From Candidatus Sigynarchaeum calidifontis (lineage in GTDB: Archaea; Asgardarchaeota; Lokiarchaeia; Sigyniarchaeales; Sigyniarchaeaceae), in NCBI GenBank assembly GCA_030587475.2, contig JAUQYZ020000070.1, positions 1 to 11,281 of the forward strand: a DNA stretch of 11,281 nucleotides, written 5' to 3'. Positions 115 to 11,265 of this stretch are shown in pieces. The first letter of the stretch is position 1; each line of letters begins with the position of its first letter. The position numbers and the translations under genes are program-made. The notes beneath the pieces were generated by a model, which saw nothing but the letters and a program-made list of their open reading frames with translations, was not told the DNA's origin and did no database searches.

Positions 115-2202
115 TCACTCGTCAATTGCATCCTTTTGGCCCGGCAGGCCCTTGATCATGCTGAGCACCAGTGCCGGCAGCTGGCTGCGCCGCACGTTCG
201 GTAAGGGCGGATCGAGCAGCTTGTTCGTGGTCTCAAGGTCGAGCCAGCGGTGCCAGTTATCGGGCACGTCCGGCGTGAATATCGCGAAACGTTTTGTCGC
301 CATCCAGCCACCCAGCTCGAGCGGGTTGAAGCCCCTCTTGAGAGCCGAGATGATATAATCATTTTCCCTGAAATGGTGCTTCTCATCCATCGTTTCCTTG
401 ACCTTGTCGAGCATCGATCGCATCATCTTGTACACGAGGGGTGCCAGTTCAGCCAAGGCAAGCACGTTGTGTTCCTGGCAGATGAAATTCTGCCGCTCGA
501 TGAATGCTGAGATGGGCACTTGCTCGCCGTGCGACCGGATCTTGTACTTTTCCGCCATCGCGATGAACCGGGCGAGCACGTGCTTGCGGCGCTCGAAGTC
601 GGCGGGCTGGATCTTGCCGAGCAGCACCTCGTACTCGACGGGCTGGTACAGATAGGCATAATCAAGGCTGAATAAAACTTTCTCGATGCGCTCGAGCGTT
701 GCGGGGTCGTCCTTGACCGCGTCGATGGCTTGCTCGATCCAACCCTGGCACCGGATCACCCAATCCTTCTTGACGTGGTTCCCCTCAAGGCCGACGTACA
801 GGTGGAGGCTTACATCGGGGAAATCCTCGATGGCCATGAGAGAATCGATGTATTGGTGCACCAAGGGTGCTGCCTTCCCGTAATATGCCTTGACGAACTC
901 GTGGACGAGCACGTTCAAGTCAAGGTCGGGATCCCAGAGCAGCTTGTGAAAGACCCACATCTTGAGCTCTTGCAGCTCCTGGTAGAGGCCGAGGCCGATG
1001 CCGGCCTGGAGGAGCACGCCCTCGACGCCGAGAGCCCGGTACTTCTTGAGATCGGTCGCGATGGTTTTCCATATCGGGTATGGCGCAAGATAGTGGCTAA
1101 AGTCGACGAAATAATGCCACACGAACACGTGGCGAGAGATCTTGAGCCATCCCAGTAAGTTCTTGTAGTATTTCGCGTTCATAGGATCCCCGTCGATCGG
1201 CTTGTTGGAACGGTACGGGTACATGTTGCAAACGACGACGATCATGTTATCGGGCAGGGGTTCGTGCCAATCCTCCGGATAGTTTTCGGTGTAGGTGTAA
1301 GCGATCGTGTGGATGAATTTGCCTGGGAACCGAGCCTTCACCACGCTCGCTATGCTCGCGCAGAACTGGAGCAGCGTCCGCGATGGGTTCCCGCGGTCGA
1401 CCTTGCGGCAGTTATCGCACTCGCAGTAGCCGGTCCAGTCATTCTGCACGATCCCGACGGTTAAGATGTCCGGTTCCTCCTCGAACCACTTGATGACGGT
1501 TTCGCTGGCGATCCGTATCACGTCCGGGTTGGTAAGGCATAGTTGACCAAGTGCCTGGAGCCGCTCGCCATTGACCAGGGAGAAATATTCGGGATGATCC
1601 TTGTAATACTTGTCAGGGGGCACGAGCGAGTAGAATGTATGCGTCATCTTGCCCGTCGAGAATTTGTAACTGCCACCTTTCTCGGGCTCCGCGAAAGGAC
1701 TCAAGTTAATTTTCTGCGTCGGGCAAAAGTCGGGATCCATCGCTTCCAAGTAGGTGATTGCACGGTACGCGAAGGCAGGTAACTCTTTCCGGGAGAACTC
1801 GGGAATCTCGAATTTCGGGTCGTGCTTGGTGACGTGGACGACTTCGGGGGCGAGAAACTTGATCCCGAGGCATTGCTCGAGAAAGGTGAAGACTCCGTAG
1901 ATCGCGCCGCGGATCTTCGAGCCCGCGATGATCACGCGGCCAGCCTTTACATGGATCCAGAAACCATCGTCTCCGAGCGATGTAATATCGATCTCGGGTG
2001 CAATTTGCTTGATGGCGGGATGGTCGCCGACGATGAAGCAAGACGCGGGGATGGCCGTGTCTTCGACGATTACCTTCAAGCTAACTCCGGTCGAGTTCCC
2101 GATATATTGGCTGAGCTGTCTTGCCGCGTATTCCTGGGCCGCGGAATGCCCCCTGGCGAGCACGATGCACGCCATGTCCGATAGTCGAATTGTCGCTGCC
2201 AT
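115..2202 (-). CDS. DUF4838 domain-containing protein (putative glycoside hydrolase-like TIM barrel with N-terminal GH67N/GH20b-type domain), 695 aa
   Basis: The N-terminal SLGDDGFWIHVKAGRVIIAGSKIRGAIYGVFTFLE...PAFAYR matches the alpha-glucuronidase/hexosaminidase N-domain pattern. HTFYSLVPPDKYYKDHPEYFSLVNGER...QLCLTNPDV, NDWTGYCECDNC, TIAYTYT, VWHY and ELKMWVFHKLLWDPDLD are motifs I recognise from DUF4838 proteins. The frame is long and uninterrupted. Confidence 0.88.
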   Translation of the reverse strand: MAATIRLSDMACIVLARGHSAAQEYAARQLSQYIGNSTGVSLKVIVEDTAIPASCFIVGDHPAIKQIAPEIDITSLGDDGFWIHVKAGRVIIAGSKIRGAIYGVFTFLEQCLGIKFLAPEVVHVTKHDPKFEIPEFSRKELPAFAYRAITYLEAMDPDFCPTQKINLSPFAEPEKGGSYKFSTGKMTHTFYSLVPPDKYYKDHPEYFSLVNGERLQALGQLCLTNPDVIRIASETVIKWFEEEPDILTVGIVQNDWTGYCECDNCRKVDRGNPSRTLLQFCASIASVVKARFPGKFIHTIAYTYTENYPEDWHEPLPDNMIVVVCNMYPYRSNKPIDGDPMNAKYYKNLLGWLKISRHVFVWHYFVDFSHYLAPYPIWKTIATDLKKYRALGVEGVLLQAGIGLGLYQELQELKMWVFHKLLWDPDLDLNVLVHEFVKAYYGKAAPLVHQYIDSLMAIEDFPDVSLHLYVGLEGNHVKKDWVIRCQGWIEQAIDAVKDDPATLERIEKVLFSLDYAYLYQPVEYEVLLGKIQPADFERRKHVLARFIAMAEKYKIRSHGEQVPISAFIERQNFICQEHNVLALAELAPLVYKMMRSMLDKVKETMDEKHHFRENDYIISALKRGFNPLELGGWMATKRFAIFTPDVPDNWHRWLDLETTNKLLDPPLPNVRRSQLPALVLSMIKGLPGQKDAIDE

Positions 2203-2397: not shown

Positions 2398-5300
2398 ATG
2401 GCGCCGAATACAACCCAAGGAAACAATCTTGAAAAGATTACCAATCGAGCATGGCGAACCTGGTGGTTCCTTTTTTATCTATTGATAATACCGGCGACGA
2501 CCGCGTTCGTTTCATTCTTCATGTCCAATTATCTCTCGGGGAACACGTATTTCTCGATAAATTTCACGACGATCCTCACCCTCGCATCCATTTTCGCCGT
2601 GTACAAGAGGTTCGATAAGTACCTCGAGAAGCCGATCTTGAAAAACGACGCGTCCAACGCGAGTTTCCGCGTCCACGCGCCTTTTTTTTTCTCCATGGTG
2701 GCGCTGGTCTCGGCCTTCGTCATTCTAGTCTTCACCGTGGAGCAACAGCTCTTCAAGCCACTCCCGATAATCGCCCTGGGCGTCGTGTATAGCTTCACCT
2801 GGTTGTACTATCGCTGGAAGCCCATCGATCACGTCGACCCCGTGAACAAGGCATTCAAGCACGCTCCCACGTTCGCGGGAGCGGCGAAAAACTTCCACAA
2901 TGTCGTCGTTTTCTTCCACCTCGCATTTCAATTCGCGATGATCTCGTTTTACATGTCTAACCCGCTGCTTTGGGGAGGTATCGGCATCCCGATCAACATC
3001 GCATTCTGGATCGCCGGGATCAAGGTCACGGCGGGCACGCGTAAGTTGCTCCAAGGTGGGCTCCTCGCGGGTAACGATGTCACCGTGCATTTCGCTATGT
3101 TCAAGAAGCAATTCGCCCAGGTCATGATCGCGGCGTGCGCCAGCTTCATTCTCATCATCATCTTCTACCCGCTCATCGTCGCGCCGGGTCTCTTGGATTA
3201 TTTCCCGTGGTTCATGCTCTTCATCTACGGCCTGGTCATCGCCGGGGTGCTTCTCGTGAAAGCGGAAGCGTACGTTGCCATCTATTTCAACAAGCAAATC
3301 AACGTGCTTTCGGGAAGCGAGCACGTCATAGACGGCGTCATGACGCGGCTCAATAAGGCGAGCATCGGTGCCACGGCGGTCCTGATCGCCACCTCATTCA
3401 TCATGGGATTCGTCCCGGGCATCCCCCTTGCCACACCGATCACTGTCGCGGCGGTGTACGCAATGGTGCTTGGCGAGCGGAAGGCCAAGCTTGTCGAAAG
3501 CTGGTGGTACTCGCTTTCACATCTGGCAAACACGATTTGCCTGATCGCATCGATCTCTTTCGGCGTGCTGCCGAGCTTGTCACTCTTCAAGATCCCGGTC
3601 ATCATCCAGGCCGCGGTGTTTGTCGTGTCACTATACACGTCGATCGAGTGCTATTGCGGTGTGAAATATTTCAAGAAACACAGGATCTCGGAATTACAAG
3701 ACGCGATGGCGGTCTGCAGTTTCGCCGTTGTCGCATATTCCTTTTACGAGATCTTGCTTGACTCGTACCTTCAGATCGCGGGGATAACATCGATCGGGGG
3801 CATTTTTACCGCGGGTACCTTTATGGGTTTTTTTATCTCCGGCATCGTCTTGCTCCTGACGTTATATCGTTTTTACTGGACACGTGGTCACGGTCGCACG
3901 AGTCGAGGCCTAAAGATCGCATTCAGCTTTGCATTTGCATGGATAGGCACCGCTCTCACCGCCTTGTTTATGCTCGATGGCCCGCACCTCGTTATTCATG
4001 ATCCGGTTAATTTAACATGTTGGACGGTCATGTGGTGGGCCGGAACGTTTATCCTATTCGTTGCGGGCAATAATTCGTTCGGCATCTATTTCCAAAGGGA
4101 TGTGGCCGATACGGCATACCGCGCTAGCATTGCTTTCATAATCGCGATTCCGACGCTGATCATCTACAACTTGCCAACGTTCTCGCCGATCCTGGCAGCA
4201 ACCATCGCCTTGACCTTCACGATGGGCTATTATATCAAGTGGGGGGCGCGCTTGGGCAAAGTTACAGTTTCGGCACACGAAAATTATTTGCGATGTGCGC
4301 GACCCGTGTTGGTATGCCAGATGCTCGCGATGCAACTGGGCTGGTATATCCAGGCGGGCTTGGACCCGATACTGGCGTCCTACATTGCTGTCATGGCAAC
4401 CGCGAGCATATGCACCCTTTTCATGCAGACGGATTTCTTCAAATGGAAAGTATCTAAGTGGCTCGATATCGTCGCGCTCTACTTCACGTCTGTCATGATC
4501 TTCAAAGGATTGCACATCGCTGCATGGAGGACGCCATACGTTTATCTGGTTCCGCTTCTCGTATCCGCCTTATTTACCTTTCTCCCGTTATATTTCACCT
4601 TCGCATCTTTGAAGTCCAAGGCCATGTTTTCCCGCGCGGCCTTTGCCAACAGCCTGCTCATCACGGTTTTGTTGCTCGCCTTGCCGACTGCGATTATGGT
4701 GGACCTTGAGTCGCGCTTCCATTTGTCCTTCAACGTATTCGCCGACCTCTTCTACACGCTCTTGCTGGCACTCACGGTCTTTTTTGCCTTCAGCGGGGCA
4801 CTGACCGGGCTCCGGGTGAAGCCTTCATACATCAAGCCGTTCAAGTGGGGGACGGTAGTTTCCATGGCAGGAATCAGCGTGTTCGGTGCTGCCACGCTCT
4901 ACAGCATCATCGCCAGGGCCGTGAATGCCGCCACGCTACCCGCCACGATCTCCCTTTCCTTCACGTTATTTTTCGCCATGAACTTCATAACGGTTGCCAT
5001 CCTTCACGGGTACCAGCTGACATCCAAGCAAGTGATGACCACTGCGACGAGGATCGTTTATTTCTCGTTCGTCATCTCCTTGTCTTTGCTCTTCACGCAG
5101 CTGTTGCAGCGGGTTTATCCTATCTCCGCGTTCCCGGTAAACTTGAATTTTCTCGGAATTTCTTGGTACGTGCTATTTTTCGCATTGTTCGCGCTGACCT
5201 TATCTTCCATCCCGAGGTTTGCCGTCCCGGATATCAAGCCCCACGTCATCGAACGAGTCTTTGCGACCAGTTGTTGGATACTGCTCGATGGCTTCGGGTG

Positions 5301-8300
5301 CTTGTATATTGCTGGCTTCCTGGCAACCGGTACTCTCCTTGGCTTCGGCACTTTGCTCGTCATGCTGATCGCGTGCACGGCACCTGCCACGCGTTTTTTC
5401 TTGCGGGATGCAGGGATGAGATCAAATCCAAAGGAACGGGCAATGGGAACGGCCGCGAAGTACGCGTTCCTCGCATCGAGCCTGGCCTTCTTGCTCGAAC
5501 GCGCGCGCATCGGGGGGCTTCTACCGGCCACGACGACGAACCTGTTGCTGTACATCTTGTTGCTCTCGAATATAGCAAGTTATGGCTTGCTTTTCGCGGC
5601 CATGATTAATCAACGTGGAACCCGGTTCTCTAGCTTGATAGGAGGCGCGCTGGTGCTCGTGCTCGCCCTTGCATTCTTGCCGTCTTGGGGAAATATCATC
5701 TGCGCGATCGTGGCGTTCGGGAGCACAGCAAAAGTAGGAGGCACGAACGAAAAGATTCGCTGGATCAGGACCGCGATGCTGTCCACCGTGCTATTTTCAG
5801 TGATCATCTGGTTCCAAGTCGCGACCATGTCTGGTATCACCCCATCCTTCATGGCACAGGGCCATATCATCGAGTTCACCGCGTGTATTTTCACCGCGGT
5901 CGTATATGGCATCGCTACGACTGTGGGAAAGAAGAGCCTTGTCGAGGGTAATGTCGCGTCAATGCTCGGGGGCTTGCTCGTGTTCCAGCTACTCCTCACG
6001 TTCACACCAACATCGATTTTCCATTCAGCAAACATAATGGTCATCGTATACTTGTCGTTGATGGCTATTTATTTCAACAAAGCGGGATCGGTAAAGAAAT
6101 ATGCAATGCTTAAGGCCTTGACCATCGTCTCGGTCATTTATCTAGTAACGGGCACGTGCTCGCTAGTGTTCAACAGACCAGCTCTCGACGGCGTGAACTT
6201 CACCTTGAGCTTCTTGGCCACGTATAATGCCTTGGCATTCATCATCATACGGTTTTTCAAGCCATTCATGTTGAAACACCGAAAAAGCACACTTGCCCCG
6301 ATGCTCGCGGCATTCAACGTCTTCATTCCGGCGTTCGTCTTCTTGCTCTTCACGTATTATGCCGTGATACCCATCGATCAGCCGATCCTCGTGCTCCTTT
6401 GCGTCGACCTGAGCTTTTTCTTGTGTTTCTTGTCGATTGGCGTGTTCAGGTGGAACTTGACGAAAGAGGTGTGGAAGGTCGGGTGGTGGCTCTGGCTCGT
6501 ATTCCCGATCATAAACTTCCAGCTCGTCTTCGAGGCTGTCCAGGGCGTCGACGTCGTCAAGGGGCTAAACTTGTTCTCCATTGCAGATATGCCGGGCTCC
6601 ATCATCATCACGCTCATTATAATATCGGCCATGTACTTGCCCGTCGTGCGGTACAAGATCCAGCGATATTTCTACCCAGCTATGCTCGTCATATGGGCCG
6701 AGAGCTTGCTCATGATTGACTGGGTCGTGCAGAATGTCTTCGCTAGCAGTCTTGCCCTCTCCACGCTGAGCTTCCTCGTCATCGGCACCGGGTTGTTGCT
6801 CCCGCTATTCTACAAGTGGCGGGCATGGCGGGCGATGGCCATTGCCTGGGCGTTCCTTACCGGATCGAACGTTATGTTCATGCACTTGGTGTTGATGGAC
6901 ACCGGCATTTCCACGGGATTCATCTTCTCGATCGAGTTGATCGTGACGAGCATTCTCGGGATGCTCTATTCCGCAATCCCGAAGAGCCCGGCGCGGCGGC
7001 CTTTACTCGTGGCTTCCTACACGTCCTTGCTGGCCGGGATGTGGTCAACCGTGTATTTCACCATATACGAAGTAACCCGGCACGCGTTCATATCCGTGAA
7101 CATCGCATTCATCGCCCTCGCGTTCGGTTTGTTCTCTTCCCGGTTCTTGAAAGTGAACCAGGTCACTACGCGCGCCTTGATCGCGTTCATCCTCATGGCC
7201 AACTTATCCCTGCTCACGTTCAACACGTTAGCGCTCGTGCACGGGTTCGTGGTGCTGGCCACTTTTGCCGGCATCACCGTGTTCGGCGGGTCGTTCTACA
7301 CGATGAACCAATACAAGATGGTCTTCCACGTCGATAAACGCATCCCGTGGTCGATCTTGGGCATAGGGAGCGCGTTGTCTGCATCGTCGCTCGTCGTATC
7401 GGCGTGGCAAGCTCCCCCCATGATCGTGGGCTTCGTGTTCTCGTTAACGGCGGGATTCTTCTTCTACAAGGACTTCCTCGTTCAAGTAAAGGCAGCTTTC
7501 ATCCCCCTCCCGCTGACCTTCCTCGCCGAGCAATTGTTCGTGGCTCTGCTGCCCGGCCAAAATCTCATTGCGATTCTCCTCTTCAGCACGTGTTACTTAG
7601 CTATCTTCCAGGTCGTCGCCAATGCGGGCGCCAAGCTGGATCCCGCCAAGTTACAAGGTGTGGACATGTCAAGGCTGACCACTTTGCTCCCCCGGCTCAA
7701 CCTCGTGATCTTCCTTGCTAATTCCATGCAGATCTCCGCGGTCATCTCGATGTTGCTCGCGGCACCCGTCGTCCTCACGCTCGTCCTGCCGTTTTTCTTG
7801 ATCTGCTGCCAATCCTTCGCGATTCGCAAGGGCATAGCGGGGAAATCCACGCGCGTAGCCGCGTTCATGACGGCCGCCAGCACCTTGCTGCACGCGTCGA
7901 TCGCCGCGAGCATCATGTTCTTGTTTCCCATCCCGGCAATCAGCACGCTGCTCCCGCCGGACATCGCGACCATTCTTGCAAAGACGACGGTCTTCATGAC
8001 GTCGATGTTCGTCCAGCTCGCCTGGCTGGACATGGGGATGTTCAAGATAATGGTTGCTAGAACACGATTCGCGCTGATGCTTCTTTCTTACGCGATGGCT
8101 TTCAATTTTATCGCGATCTACTTGTACATCAACCACGCGGACCCGTCCCTCCTTGCACTGTCGCTCTGCGCCCTGAATGTCCTCACGATGCATCTCTGGC
8201 AGCTCGCGTTCCCCGCACGCAAGATTGCCGCCAGAAACTTGAAGAGGGTCTTGTATAACGGGATACTCGCCAGCGGCGCGTCTTTCGCTTCGAGATGGGT

Positions 8301-11265
8301 CGCCTTCGAGCCATCGTTGGCCGTGGATCCAACAGGACTCGCATCATGGCTATTGTACCTGACTTTCACGTTCTTATTCCTGATCTTGCTCAACTTGCTC
8401 CTTAACAAGACGTTGCCGGGGCGGGCTTACCTGATCTACCAGTTTTCGCTGTACATGGCATTCCAGCTCTTCTTATCGCTTTCGTGGACGAGATTATTGC
8501 CATCCTATGGCCCTGTTGGCCTGATTTCCATCACCGGGCTCGCTCTCATCGAGACCTTTCTCGCATTCGTCCCGTTCCATTTCGTGCTCCACGGCATGAT
8601 GAAGCGAGTAGCAAGCAGGCGATCATTTTCGGCGCTTGCGCTGCTCGTGTATCTCGAAGTCTCGTTTTTGGTATATGCCGGGCCGGCCCTAGCACTTGGC
8701 ACGGTCGAGAGCGTACTCCTCGGGCTCGGTTGCATGTTCGTGATCTCGCTCGTCGATTTCCACGGAATTAAATGCATCAAGCCGTCGGTCACCTGGGGAC
8801 TCAACCTGGCATCGTACGTGCCGTTCATGCTGACATTGTTGCTCACTTGGACCGAAAACTTGCCTGTGATCGGCCCTGTCGGCCTCGTTTCGATCCTTGG
8901 CCTCGCGCTGGTCGAGACTGCTCTCGCGTTCTACGTGATCCACGTCATCAGGCACCGGCTCGCGAAGCGGCCTTTCTCGCGGCGGCCTTTCGCGTGGTTG
9001 ATGATTCCCATCTACGCCGAGCTGTCGTTCTTGGCATTTGCCGTGACCGCCCTGGTACGCGGCTCGACGGAGAGCGCCTTGAACGGGTTCATCGCCTTAT
9101 TTTTCCTCACCATACTGGAGATCTATGTCGTCAAGTGCGTCAGCTCCAAGATTGGTTACGTGCTCAACATGGTTGCCTACATCCCCTTCATGGCCACGCT
9201 CGCGATCGAGATGCTTGGAACGTTTCCCGCGGCAATTTCCGGAATCGGCCTTGTCTCGATCGCCGTTTTCCTCCTCGTCGAAACGCTTCTTGGCCTTTAT
9301 TTGCTACACGTGGTTCGCCACCGGTTGCTGGCAAAGCCCTTTGATAAATCCGCCTTTACCATCCTCACCCTCCCCATCTATTTCGAGATCTCGTTCATCG
9401 CATATGCATCTGCGACGCTTGCCCTCGACACGAACGGCAGCATACTCACCGCCCTCGGCGTGTTGTTCACCTTGACACTTTTGGACGTGCACGGGATCCG
9501 ATGCCTCAAGCCCGGTATCGGTTATGTCCTTAACCTGGCATCCTATCTTCCGTTAATGATCACGTTCGCGATAGGCTGGGTAGAAAATCTCCCGGTCGGC
9601 ATCGAAGGAATCGCTTTGCTCTCCTCAGGCATCCTCGCCCTTCTGGAAACCTTGCTCGCCATTTACCCGTTCCACATCATCCATGATATTCTCTTGAAAC
9701 GAAAGATAAAATGGCGGGCATTCGGGCCATTGTTCGCCCTTCTTTACATCGAGATCGCTATCATCGCTTATGCCGGCATGTCGCTCGTTCTTGGTATGAC
9801 TGGTGGTATATTCTCCGCATTCGCGTGCTTGTTCGTGCTTGCTATCATCGAATCATACGGGGTCAAGTGTATGAAGCCGGAATTCGCGCGGCTGCTCGTC
9901 GTTCTCGGATGGCTGCCGTTGACAGTGATAAGTTATATGCTCGTTTCCGCGGTTGCCGCCAGTTCCCGCGGGCCCTTTATGTCCACCATCGCCGCCTTTC
10001 TCGTGCTCCAGCAGTACACGAACCGCGCGATCATCACCATGTTGATAGCTTTTTCGCCATCGCGCGACAAGGCACTTGGCAAGGCCAGGGAGATAGCAAG
10101 GCGACTGATTGGATTGGGAATCTACGCATTCGTGTTCCTCGCCTTGCAGGCCTTCGTCAGCGAGGCGGGTTTCGGCACGATAACCCAGTCCTTGGCTATC
10201 AGCTTCGCAGCGTTCATCTTGTCGCTGCTGGACCGCGCCGGGCTAAACTGCTTCGGGAAATGGTTAGCGACGGCCATGACCGAGATTTGCTGGATCCTGT
10301 TTTCGGTAGCCTTGACGAGTGGTGTTATATGGTTATTCGGCTCCACGCCCGCGCTGATGCCGATCATAGCGATCAGCATCGACCTCGAGGCTGCCGCGGC
10401 CGTGGGTTTTTTGAAAGACTTCAAAACGAAAAAGTACGGCGCGCGGTCGAGGCTCGCTTACCGCATACTCATCGTGTATTTGTACATCATCATCAGCACG
10501 TGGCCTAACTTCCTCTGGGCAAATCAACCGTTGATCGACACGTGGCTGGTATTTGGCTCGATACTGCTCTTCGATCTTTTCCTTCGCGGCGACGTGAAAG
10601 GTGCGCGGGCGATGCCTGGCAAGGTTGCACGCGCCTTGATTCGCGCGGATGATATTACCATTTGCTGCTGGCTCGGAGTGCTAGCCTACCAGGGCTTGCA
10701 ATCTATCCCGGGGAGCATCCCTTTCGTTTCCTTCATGCTCTCGTCCGTCATTGGCATCACGTTCCTCTACATCCCGCTCCAGCCGTTCAAGAGGGGAGGT
10801 TTTTTCAAGCAAGTTTACTGGACGGCTTTCAGCATCGCGTGCGCAACGCTCACGACAACGACATCGTTTTATTACGCACCTGTCCCGAGATACGTGCATT
10901 TCCTTTTCGGCGGGCTCGTGTTCTTCTTGCTATTCCGCGTGGTTCTCGAACGCAAGGATCGCAGCCCGACCGGGCGGTTCCTAATTAACCTCATATATTA
11001 TATCGTGATTTATTCTTTTGTCGCTGGAATACTCCTTGGCTTCACCAACGTCACGCTGATAATGGCGCTGCTGGTAATCATCATCTTCGGTGCGATCTTA
11101 TCTGGGATGGTGTATTTCTACGAAAAACGAGGGACGATCTCCATGAAATGGCGTCTCTTCACGAGCATCACGTTGATCTGCCTCATCGGCGTTTTTATGC
11201 TCTTCCTGGTGTTATGGGCATCAGGTGTACCCCAGCCACGAGGCATTATTACATTGGCGGGGTGA
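2398..11265 (+). CDS. Giant polytopic membrane protein of unknown function (~2955 aa, ~90-95 predicted TM helices, internal 4-TM tandem repeats)
   Basis: The 8.9-kb frame has no stops (ORF track 2329..11265). The first in-frame ATG is at 2398, after a G-rich RBS-like motif and downstream of the TATA-like box. The translation is a near-continuous series of 17-24-residue hydrophobic segments separated by loops that are mostly under 35 aa. No enzyme, NTPase or known transporter motif is recognisable. Confidence 0.92.
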   Translation: MAPNTTQGNNLEKITNRAWRTWWFLFYLLIIPATTAFVSFFMSNYLSGNTYFSINFTTILTLASIFAVYKRFDKYLEKPILKNDASNASFRVHAPFFFSMVALVSAFVILVFTVEQQLFKPLPIIALGVVYSFTWLYYRWKPIDHVDPVNKAFKHAPTFAGAAKNFHNVVVFFHLAFQFAMISFYMSNPLLWGGIGIPINIAFWIAGIKVTAGTRKLLQGGLLAGNDVTVHFAMFKKQFAQVMIAACASFILIIIFYPLIVAPGLLDYFPWFMLFIYGLVIAGVLLVKAEAYVAIYFNKQINVLSGSEHVIDGVMTRLNKASIGATAVLIATSFIMGFVPGIPLATPITVAAVYAMVLGERKAKLVESWWYSLSHLANTICLIASISFGVLPSLSLFKIPVIIQAAVFVVSLYTSIECYCGVKYFKKHRISELQDAMAVCSFAVVAYSFYEILLDSYLQIAGITSIGGIFTAGTFMGFFISGIVLLLTLYRFYWTRGHGRTSRGLKIAFSFAFAWIGTALTALFMLDGPHLVIHDPVNLTCWTVMWWAGTFILFVAGNNSFGIYFQRDVADTAYRASIAFIIAIPTLIIYNLPTFSPILAATIALTFTMGYYIKWGARLGKVTVSAHENYLRCARPVLVCQMLAMQLGWYIQAGLDPILASYIAVMATASICTLFMQTDFFKWKVSKWLDIVALYFTSVMIFKGLHIAAWRTPYVYLVPLLVSALFTFLPLYFTFASLKSKAMFSRAAFANSLLITVLLLALPTAIMVDLESRFHLSFNVFADLFYTLLLALTVFFAFSGALTGLRVKPSYIKPFKWGTVVSMAGISVFGAATLYSIIARAVNAATLPATISLSFTLFFAMNFITVAILHGYQLTSKQVMTTATRIVYFSFVISLSLLFTQLLQRVYPISAFPVNLNFLGISWYVLFFALFALTLSSIPRFAVPDIKPHVIERVFATSCWILLDGFGCLYIAGFLATGTLLGFGTLLVMLIACTAPATRFFLRDAGMRSNPKERAMGTAAKYAFLASSLAFLLERARIGGLLPATTTNLLLYILLLSNIASYGLLFAAMINQRGTRFSSLIGGALVLVLALAFLPSWGNIICAIVAFGSTAKVGGTNEKIRWIRTAMLSTVLFSVIIWFQVATMSGITPSFMAQGHIIEFTACIFTAVVYGIATTVGKKSLVEGNVASMLGGLLVFQLLLTFTPTSIFHSANIMVIVYLSLMAIYFNKAGSVKKYAMLKALTIVSVIYLVTGTCSLVFNRPALDGVNFTLSFLATYNALAFIIIRFFKPFMLKHRKSTLAPMLAAFNVFIPAFVFLLFTYYAVIPIDQPILVLLCVDLSFFLCFLSIGVFRWNLTKEVWKVGWWLWLVFPIINFQLVFEAVQGVDVVKGLNLFSIADMPGSIIITLIIISAMYLPVVRYKIQRYFYPAMLVIWAESLLMIDWVVQNVFASSLALSTLSFLVIGTGLLLPLFYKWRAWRAMAIAWAFLTGSNVMFMHLVLMDTGISTGFIFSIELIVTSILGMLYSAIPKSPARRPLLVASYTSLLAGMWSTVYFTIYEVTRHAFISVNIAFIALAFGLFSSRFLKVNQVTTRALIAFILMANLSLLTFNTLALVHGFVVLATFAGITVFGGSFYTMNQYKMVFHVDKRIPWSILGIGSALSASSLVVSAWQAPPMIVGFVFSLTAGFFFYKDFLVQVKAAFIPLPLTFLAEQLFVALLPGQNLIAILLFSTCYLAIFQVVANAGAKLDPAKLQGVDMSRLTTLLPRLNLVIFLANSMQISAVISMLLAAPVVLTLVLPFFLICCQSFAIRKGIAGKSTRVAAFMTAASTLLHASIAASIMFLFPIPAISTLLPPDIATILAKTTVFMTSMFVQLAWLDMGMFKIMVARTRFALMLLSYAMAFNFIAIYLYINHADPSLLALSLCALNVLTMHLWQLAFPARKIAARNLKRVLYNGILASGASFASRWVAFEPSLAVDPTGLASWLLYLTFTFLFLILLNLLLNKTLPGRAYLIYQFSLYMAFQLFLSLSWTRLLPSYGPVGLISITGLALIETFLAFVPFHFVLHGMMKRVASRRSFSALALLVYLEVSFLVYAGPALALGTVESVLLGLGCMFVISLVDFHGIKCIKPSVTWGLNLASYVPFMLTLLLTWTENLPVIGPVGLVSILGLALVETALAFYVIHVIRHRLAKRPFSRRPFAWLMIPIYAELSFLAFAVTALVRGSTESALNGFIALFFLTILEIYVVKCVSSKIGYVLNMVAYIPFMATLAIEMLGTFPAAISGIGLVSIAVFLLVETLLGLYLLHVVRHRLLAKPFDKSAFTILTLPIYFEISFIAYASATLALDTNGSILTALGVLFTLTLLDVHGIRCLKPGIGYVLNLASYLPLMITFAIGWVENLPVGIEGIALLSSGILALLETLLAIYPFHIIHDILLKRKIKWRAFGPLFALLYIEIAIIAYAGMSLVLGMTGGIFSAFACLFVLAIIESYGVKCMKPEFARLLVVLGWLPLTVISYMLVSAVAASSRGPFMSTIAAFLVLQQYTNRAIITMLIAFSPSRDKALGKAREIARRLIGLGIYAFVFLALQAFVSEAGFGTITQSLAISFAAFILSLLDRAGLNCFGKWLATAMTEICWILFSVALTSGVIWLFGSTPALMPIIAISIDLEAAAAVGFLKDFKTKKYGARSRLAYRILIVYLYIIISTWPNFLWANQPLIDTWLVFGSILLFDLFLRGDVKGARAMPGKVARALIRADDITICCWLGVLAYQGLQSIPGSIPFVSFMLSSVIGITFLYIPLQPFKRGGFFKQVYWTAFSIACATLTTTTSFYYAPVPRYVHFLFGGLVFFLLFRVVLERKDRSPTGRFLINLIYYIVIYSFVAGILLGFTNVTLIMALLVIIIFGAILSGMVYFYEKRGTISMKWRLFTSITLICLIGVFMLFLVLWASGVPQPRGIITLAG
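8509..9969 (+). repeat. Four tandem intragenic protein repeats of 121-122 aa (363/366/366 bp period), each with 4 TM helices
   Basis: Units start at 8509 (GPVGLISITGLALIET), 8872 (GPVGLVSILGLALVET), 9238 (SGIGLVSIAVFLLVET) and 9604 (EGIALLSSGILALLET). The conserved Glu codons are at 8551, 8914, 9280 and 9646. The conserved Cys codons are at 8773, 9136, 9502 and 9868, with the same spacing. Confidence 0.93.
9970..10350 (+). repeat. Degenerate fifth copy of the 4-TM repeat
   Basis: FILSLLDRAGLNCFGK aligns with FTLTLLDVHGIRCLKP and FVISLVDFHGIKCIKP. Its Cys codon at 10249 is 381 bp after the previous one. The first half of the unit is poorly conserved. Confidence 0.6.

Follow-up and report, generated by a model that had tools for sequence, protein, structure and literature searches.

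A giant gene of a Lokiarchaeia archaeon encodes a protein of about 95 predicted transmembrane helices, with repeat arms around a conserved core

Asgard archaea are close relatives of eukaryotes. The window analysed here, i.e., the whole stretch of 11,281 bases, is an entire contig from a Sigynarchaeum genome (4.99 Mb, 89%-complete), and most of it is taken up by one stop-free open reading frame that runs from an ATG to a TGA and encodes a chain of 2,955 residues (Table 1). An in-frame TTG lies upstream at position 2329, and the database gene call and the homologues begin at 2398. The divergent neighbour, a DUF4838 / GH67N protein, stands beside the giant gene in this genus only and is therefore probably not part of the same system. 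Positions 1-36 of the window hold the zinc-ribbon-like end of a 188-aa gene; in sister assemblies, the gene downstream of the giant encodes a zinc-ribbon and WD40 protein of 572 aa (L013:18986-20704).

Table 1. Genes in the window and segments of the giant protein (aa, residues of the giant protein; TM, transmembrane helices, predicted).
Feature	Position in window	Strand
DUF4838 / GH67N protein, 695 aa, divergent neighbour	115..2202	-
Gene for the 2,955-aa protein with about 95 predicted TM	2398..11265	+
N-terminal module, aa 1-310, 8 TM	2398..3327	+
N-terminal arm, aa 311-1230, degenerate 4-TM units	3328..6087	+
Conserved core, aa 1231-1700, ~16 TM	6088..7497	+
C-terminal arm, aa 1701-2780, 4-TM units	7498..10737	+
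Four recent tandem 121-122-aa 4-TM units, aa 2034-2520	8497..9957	+
Conserved C-terminal end, last hairpin and final helix, with E2909, W2918 and R2919	10975..11265	+

A reading frame of this size on a short contig could be an assembly chimera or a spurious ORF, and the stop codon does lie 16 bases from the contig end, where four bases differ between assemblies. The whole window recurs at 99.97% in two further NCBI assemblies, which extend into flanking genes on both sides and carry the giant gene with the same neighbours. The four mismatches all fall within the last 50 bases of the contig (window 11232-11255), alter two C-terminal residues, and are probably sequence errors at the contig end. 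Homologues occur in more than 100 genomes, closed genomes included, and among named relatives the closest, at 78% identity, is a hypothetical protein from Ca. Sigynarchaeum springense, a relationship that assigns the organism to Lokiarchaeia. Measured against a congener, divergence by codon position is 0.25, 0.15 and 0.41, highest at third positions, which is the pattern of a gene under selection and speaks against a spurious frame. The chimera is refuted by the whole gene in the other assemblies and by the homologues in closed genomes, and the chance that the frame is an artefact of either sort is vanishingly small. The ORF is thus a real, conserved and intact single gene of a Sigynarchaeum-like Lokiarchaeia archaeon.

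A preliminary description of the sequence had counted some 90-95 hydrophobic helices by eye, at one per 31 residues. Kyte-Doolittle counting gives 66-96 segments depending on the rule, with 72 in the real chain compared to 50±3 in shuffled chains under one rule and 85 compared to 69±3 under a second; since shuffled chains already reach 50-69 segments, the hydropathy count is weak evidence when taken alone. The charge pattern is more informative in that Lys/Arg content alternates from loop to loop (lag-1 r of -0.63, compared to -0.04±0.13 in shuffles), the top spectral period of both hydropathy and Lys/Arg is 60.3 residues, and 48 basic clusters lie along the chain. Forty-eight clusters at a 60-residue period correspond to 47 hairpins and one final helix, i.e., about 95 TM helices, and by the positive-inside rule the N-terminus would face inwards and the C-terminus outwards. 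Consistent with this, AlphaFold models of two fragments contain 12 helices in residues 1785-2160 (pLDDT 91, pTM 0.81) and about 14 long helices in residues 1285-1700 (pLDDT 93, pTM 0.80); both have about 30 residues per helix, in agreement with the density expected for 95 helices. The predicted count of about 95, which rests on the 60-residue Lys/Arg period and these two confident models, thus bears out the first estimate of both number and density, and nothing points to a much lower figure. No loop reaches 60 residues, so that the chain has no globular domain, and since no profile match was obtained either, the claimed lack of a soluble or ATP-binding domain also stands.

With Asp and Glu together at only about 3% of residues, the giant protein is by far the most polytopic of its genome: under a strict hydropathy rule it has 72 segments, compared to 15 in the next protein of at least 500 aa. 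To our knowledge, Piezo with its 38 TM helices is the most polytopic well-characterised chain, and about 95 helices is far above any characterised protein chain that we know of. Predicted counts of up to 331 TM helices per chain have been described for giant proteins of Omnitrophota; in the record case there is one TM helix per ~370 aa and TM helices make up ~2% of residues (bioRxiv 10.64898/2026.06.07.730766). Those helices are scattered sparsely among soluble domains, whereas the protein described here has one helix per 31 aa throughout and no soluble domain.

Within the chain, comparison of homologues distinguishes a core, two arms and two end modules (Table 1). Conservation peaks at residues 1340-1600, and W1359, W1366, P1370, N1373, P1415, W1433, W1442, N1446, W1477, W1484 and P1528 are invariant or nearly so. 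Buried polar residues are kept in the core (N1373 in 100% of sequences, N1446 in 93%, N1491 in 85% and E1435 in 73%), no acidic or His residue of the core is invariant, and a small outer β-hairpin is predicted near residues 1390-1398. Besides the core, both ends of the chain are conserved. The N-terminal module begins with an amphipathic lead helix and has a near-invariant Pro32; in many relatives the first 8 TM helices (~313 aa) are encoded on their own, by a gene whose end overlaps the start of the next, and the second gene of this natural split is preceded by its own Shine-Dalgarno-like motif. The split after TM8 was seen at seven loci, and splits at other places at three. In one homologue, which NCBI names a zinc-ribbon domain protein, an early loop is interrupted by an insert of 84 residues (137-220). 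With 71-100 sequences, the alignments were too shallow for mean-field covariation to yield a contact map.

The arms are built of repeats. Four tandem units of the C-terminal arm are 30-43% identical to one another, two close relatives have three copies of this 121-122-aa unit compared to the four here, and in other lineages units have been duplicated independently, at a spacing of ~122 aa or 255 aa. The reversed controls of the repeat search gave no matches. Profile comparison detected older matches over both arms, above the reversed-profile maximum, and 50 of the 56 arm-to-arm matches keep the 4-TM register; the centre of the core (residues 1289-1586) takes almost no part in these self-matches. 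Between relatives, much of the length variation of the N-terminal arm comes in steps of ~125-140 aa, the overall statistic for such quantisation being modest.

Some units carry residues of the kind found at binding sites: over 175 units, Y45 recurs in 91%, E47 in 87%, E12 in 65%, E64 in 60% and H96 in 55%. The giant could on this basis be a chain of small transport units, each binding an ion or solute through its buried Glu, Tyr and His. Residues of the Y45/E47 type are however confined to one subfamily of units, most arm units have none of them, and such residues can merely stabilise helix packing. In addition, no MFS, DMT, Mrp or other transporter profile matched, let alone tiled, the chain, also when aligned fragments of homologues were used for the search; the preliminary description had held open a concatenated known transporter family of this sort, and the profile searches give no sign of one. 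A chain of transport units is accordingly very improbable.

Searches against known families and folds were largely negative. Single proteins and alignments gave nothing significant in Pfam, NCBIfam or PDB sequence searches, in line with the earlier statement that the protein belongs to no nameable family, and Foldseek found no match to the arm or core model in the PDB at E <= 0.001. With VIA-align, in which a Z of about 13 is regarded as meaningful for helical bundles, the best values were 10.7 for the arm model and 9.2 for the core model. An Atlas structure search gave TM scores by query of at most 0.31, and Atlas feature searches gave low recognition, with a DUF2339 cluster at 0.83 that serves as a lead only. 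Among the partial matches of the core model were many helical repeats of TPR, 14-3-3, cullin and Bro1 type, and both models aligned loosely to the Bro1 domain (237-262 residues, Z 8.2-8.3, rmsd 9-10). These partial matches to the predicted core hint at stacked hairpins.

The nearest solved arrangement for the 4-TM unit is that of EccD (PDB 7b9f, 6umm and 6lar; Z 8.6-10.7), whose TM1-4 ranked first among solved structures in two VIA-align searches with the unit. At either end of the arm model, the terminal unit aligns to this one stretch of EccD (108-131 residues, Z 9.5-10.7, rmsd 3.1-4.9), which shows that the units share one fold with each other; for kinship of helical bundles to EccD, a Z of ~13 would be needed. 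EccD is a non-catalytic subunit of the membrane wall in type VII secretion, where it works within an ATPase-driven machine, and EccD3 dimers enclose a hydrophobic cavity of 20 x 30 Å (PMC6986878). By analogy, the giant might form the wall of a large conduit or lipid-handling cavity, the chain curling or pairing around a space, lipid-filled or substrate-passing, whose size would be set by arm length and whose cargo would be bulky (lipids, glycans or folded proteins, for example); the conservation of both chain ends is what a closed ring would need. The match, however, covers only about 4 of the 11 EccD helices at 8-12% identity, EccD has a ubiquitin-like N-terminal domain whereas the giant has no soluble domain, and the EccD profile PF19053 did not match the giant although the control genome, Corynebacterium, scored above the cut-off. 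Nor was EccD found in the four genomes searched; a search for EccC/FtsK gave only short, partial FtsK (P-loop) matches genome-wide and none in neighbours of the giant. Neither an ATPase nor a cargo gene stands regularly beside the giant genes, and the two arms vary in length independently of one another across the family. We therefore consider a conduit unlikely.

Piezo offers a second analogy, in unit size. Piezo1 and Piezo2 likewise place many TM helices in one chain, and their blades consist of nine repeats of a 4-TM unit (PMC7796548). The giant might then be a tension sensor or mechanosensitive channel, with arms for blades and a gated pore formed by several copies of the core, where the conserved Asn, Ser and Glu lie in kinked helices. 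The Sigynarchaeum genome, at 89% completeness, gave no match to MscS (PF00924), a point in favour of this reading; MK-D1 and L. ossiferum, however, carry MscS in addition to the giant. MscS was also unmatched in one further genome and present in 14 of 14 control genomes. Moreover, Piezo has an extracellular cap (~240 aa) near its C-terminus and a long intracellular beam (PMC7796548), whereas no loop of the giant is long enough for either, and Piezo joins a C-terminal trimeric pore to one blade per chain, whereas the conserved part of the giant is central and bears two arms. Piezo Pfam models and solved chains gave no sequence match to the giant, and no Piezo chain was among the VIA-align matches listed for the two fragments; such a search does not speak against a Piezo-like fold of the unit. 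A Piezo-like sensor is quite unlikely. By the features tested, the giant is a member of neither the Piezo, the EccD nor the transporter families, and at most it may work like a Piezo blade or an EccD wall.

It belongs instead to a family of its own, of which it has all the features, i.e., the Trp-rich core, the N- and C-terminal motifs and the 4-TM arms. A profile of the core found the gene, mostly in single copy, in 116 of ~156 genomes of the order; beyond it, the profile matched in a single genome, from a second order of the class, and gave no match in ~240 other Asgard genomes. Against 1.84 billion representative sequences it gave 58 matches, and all four looked-up entries with a source name were from Promethearchaeota. 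Family members are 2,700-4,900 aa long with ~85-142 predicted TM helices, and while total size varies the length of the core is nearly fixed. Cultured species have members too: DSAG12_00898 of Promethearchaeum syntrophicum MK-D1 (WP_147661999.1, 3,940 aa) and, in Ca. Lokiarchaeum ossiferum, NEF87_002906 (3,146 aa) and NEF87_003094 (4,905-4,908 aa), the two paralogues lying in one closed genome. These proteins match the core profile at E 1e-143 to 1e-157 and have the same ends and layout; they differ in their longer arms (~96-142 TM) and are annotated only as hypothetical. One further genome has a second copy, of 1,041 aa. DSAG12_00898 is transcribed in MK-D1 at 152 RPKM, with its neighbours at 203-317 (PMC7015854, Supplementary Table 3). 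In the accessible part of the supplementary data of PMC9834061, the locus tag NEF87_003094 was not found, and the literature, at incomplete coverage, yielded no published description of the family.

The surroundings of the gene differ between genera. A shared operon was rejected, because the neighbours switch by genus among GH4, ABC transporter, flotillin and zinc-ribbon genes. In MK-D1 the giant gene lies directly behind a flotillin (SPFH) gene, DSAG12_00897 (L015:2207-3442), and in three genomes of the same genus the flotillin gene and a 301-aa partner (L015:1242-2147) are directly upstream of the giant; the flotillin neighbour, which is limited to this one genus, fits a membrane-organising role. 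In two genera no giant gene was found, and the place behind a GH4 gene where it usually lies is without it in genomes that are 96-99% complete. The gene is thus dispensable in some lineages and not a universal determinant of shape. At that site these genera have a pirin or second GH4 gene instead.

When an N-terminal profile was searched against 400 Asgard genomes, ten weak matches turned up outside the order, four of them within the first 65 residues encoded by genes of giant all-TM proteins in Thorarchaeota. Such Thorarchaeia giants occur in 26 of the 89 genomes of that group of families, e.g., TFG09799.1 (2,033 aa), L121:3952-10053 and loci L165-L176. At 2,030-2,300 aa and ~67-74 TM helices they are shorter than the Lokiarchaeia proteins and are built of tandem 237-aa (8-TM) repeats; the 60-aa Lys/Arg period is common to both. 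Profile-profile comparison of the two families put the match probability of the N-termini at 89% and that of the C-termini at 43%, and gave no significant match to the Lokiarchaeia core. Reciprocally, for 43 of 96 Lokiarchaeia proteins, which as kin are not independent, the Thorarchaeia N-terminal profile scored best within the first 60 residues. From the other Lokiarchaeia order, one protein of 2,608 aa (L045:848-8674) combines a core of Lokiarchaeia type (E 8e-17) with a C-terminus of Thorarchaeia type and likely bridges the two. From these sequence comparisons, the Lokiarchaeia and Thorarchaeia giants are probably homologous. This probable sister family and the syntenic absence from some genera are both new. 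Next to most Thorarchaeia giants, in divergent orientation, lies a zinc-ribbon gene of 160-190 aa without a homologue in the Sigynarchaeum genome, and the C-terminal half of its product presumably resembles a CFI-box-CTERM domain. Another Asgard family comprises conserved polytopic proteins of 726-737 aa with a HEAT-like C-terminal tail (L189:1833-4046, L192:338-2518); weak matches to the 737-aa protein were rejected as chance.

The preliminary description had proposed a structural role within the bilayer for a uniformly membrane-embedded chain. The repeat arms fit that proposal, whereas the protein is not uniform but has a strongly conserved core, in which buried Asn and Glu keep a channel, conduit or binding role in play. 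What can be taken as established is the gene with its helix count, the repeat unit, a hub and ends that are conserved, arms that have gained whole units in particular lineages, and the lack of a catalytic or nucleotide-binding domain. To account for these, we favour, with middling confidence, an extensible helical-repeat scaffold inside the membrane. The Trp-rich hub would bear two arms of stacked 4-TM units, with the conserved end modules closing the chain. In the bilayer, the arms would add up to an extended and probably curved wall with a contour of ~45-50 nm, if each hairpin contributes ~1 nm, and the number of units would tune its size. Such a wall could shape or fence a patch of membrane, or hold membrane proteins, with no energy source of its own, while the hub may be the constant point at which a partner, a lipid or another copy of the giant docks or binds.

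Several observations argue for this scaffold. A near-fixed core within chains that range from ~85 to ~142 TM helices is easier to reconcile with a structure of tunable size than with a fixed catalytic or transport domain. The arm units stay in the 4-TM register with the core centre standing apart, and whole units have been duplicated independently across lineages. The fold comparisons point the same way, in that both end units of the arm model match one stretch of EccD and so share a fold with each other, many partial matches of the core model are helical repeats of the TPR, 14-3-3 and cullin type, and both models align loosely to the Bro1 domain. The core has no invariant acidic or His residue, and the MK-D1 gene is transcribed and placed behind a flotillin gene. 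Counting against the scaffold are the fold Z values below ~13, the buried Asn and Glu kept in the core and Y45/E47 kept in the repeat, as a pore or binding site would have them, the restriction of the flotillin neighbour to one genus, and the syntenic absence of the gene in near-complete genomes of two genera. A broader idea, which we regard as doubtful, is that the Lokiarchaeia and Thorarchaeia giants form one old family of intrabilayer α-solenoids with 65-140 TM helices, in which the number of 4-TM units sets the curvature or size of a membrane structure.

Chains of 95-140 helices have 2.5 to 3.7 times the 38 of Piezo, which poses the problem of how a prokaryotic translocon could insert and fold so dense a protein. 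A repeat that changes length by whole 4-TM steps is also a natural building block for membrane protein design. Since orthologues are present in two cultured species, one of them transcribed, and the fragment models are confident, both the structure of the protein and its place in the cell can be tested directly. The family occurs in the closest archaeal kin of eukaryotes, and cultured Asgard members have protrusions and no ordered S-layer (PMC9834061). If the broader and doubtful α-solenoid idea is true, the giants would be a new kind of membrane skeleton, which may serve, for example, in the necks or walls of Asgard protrusions or in flotillin-type patches.
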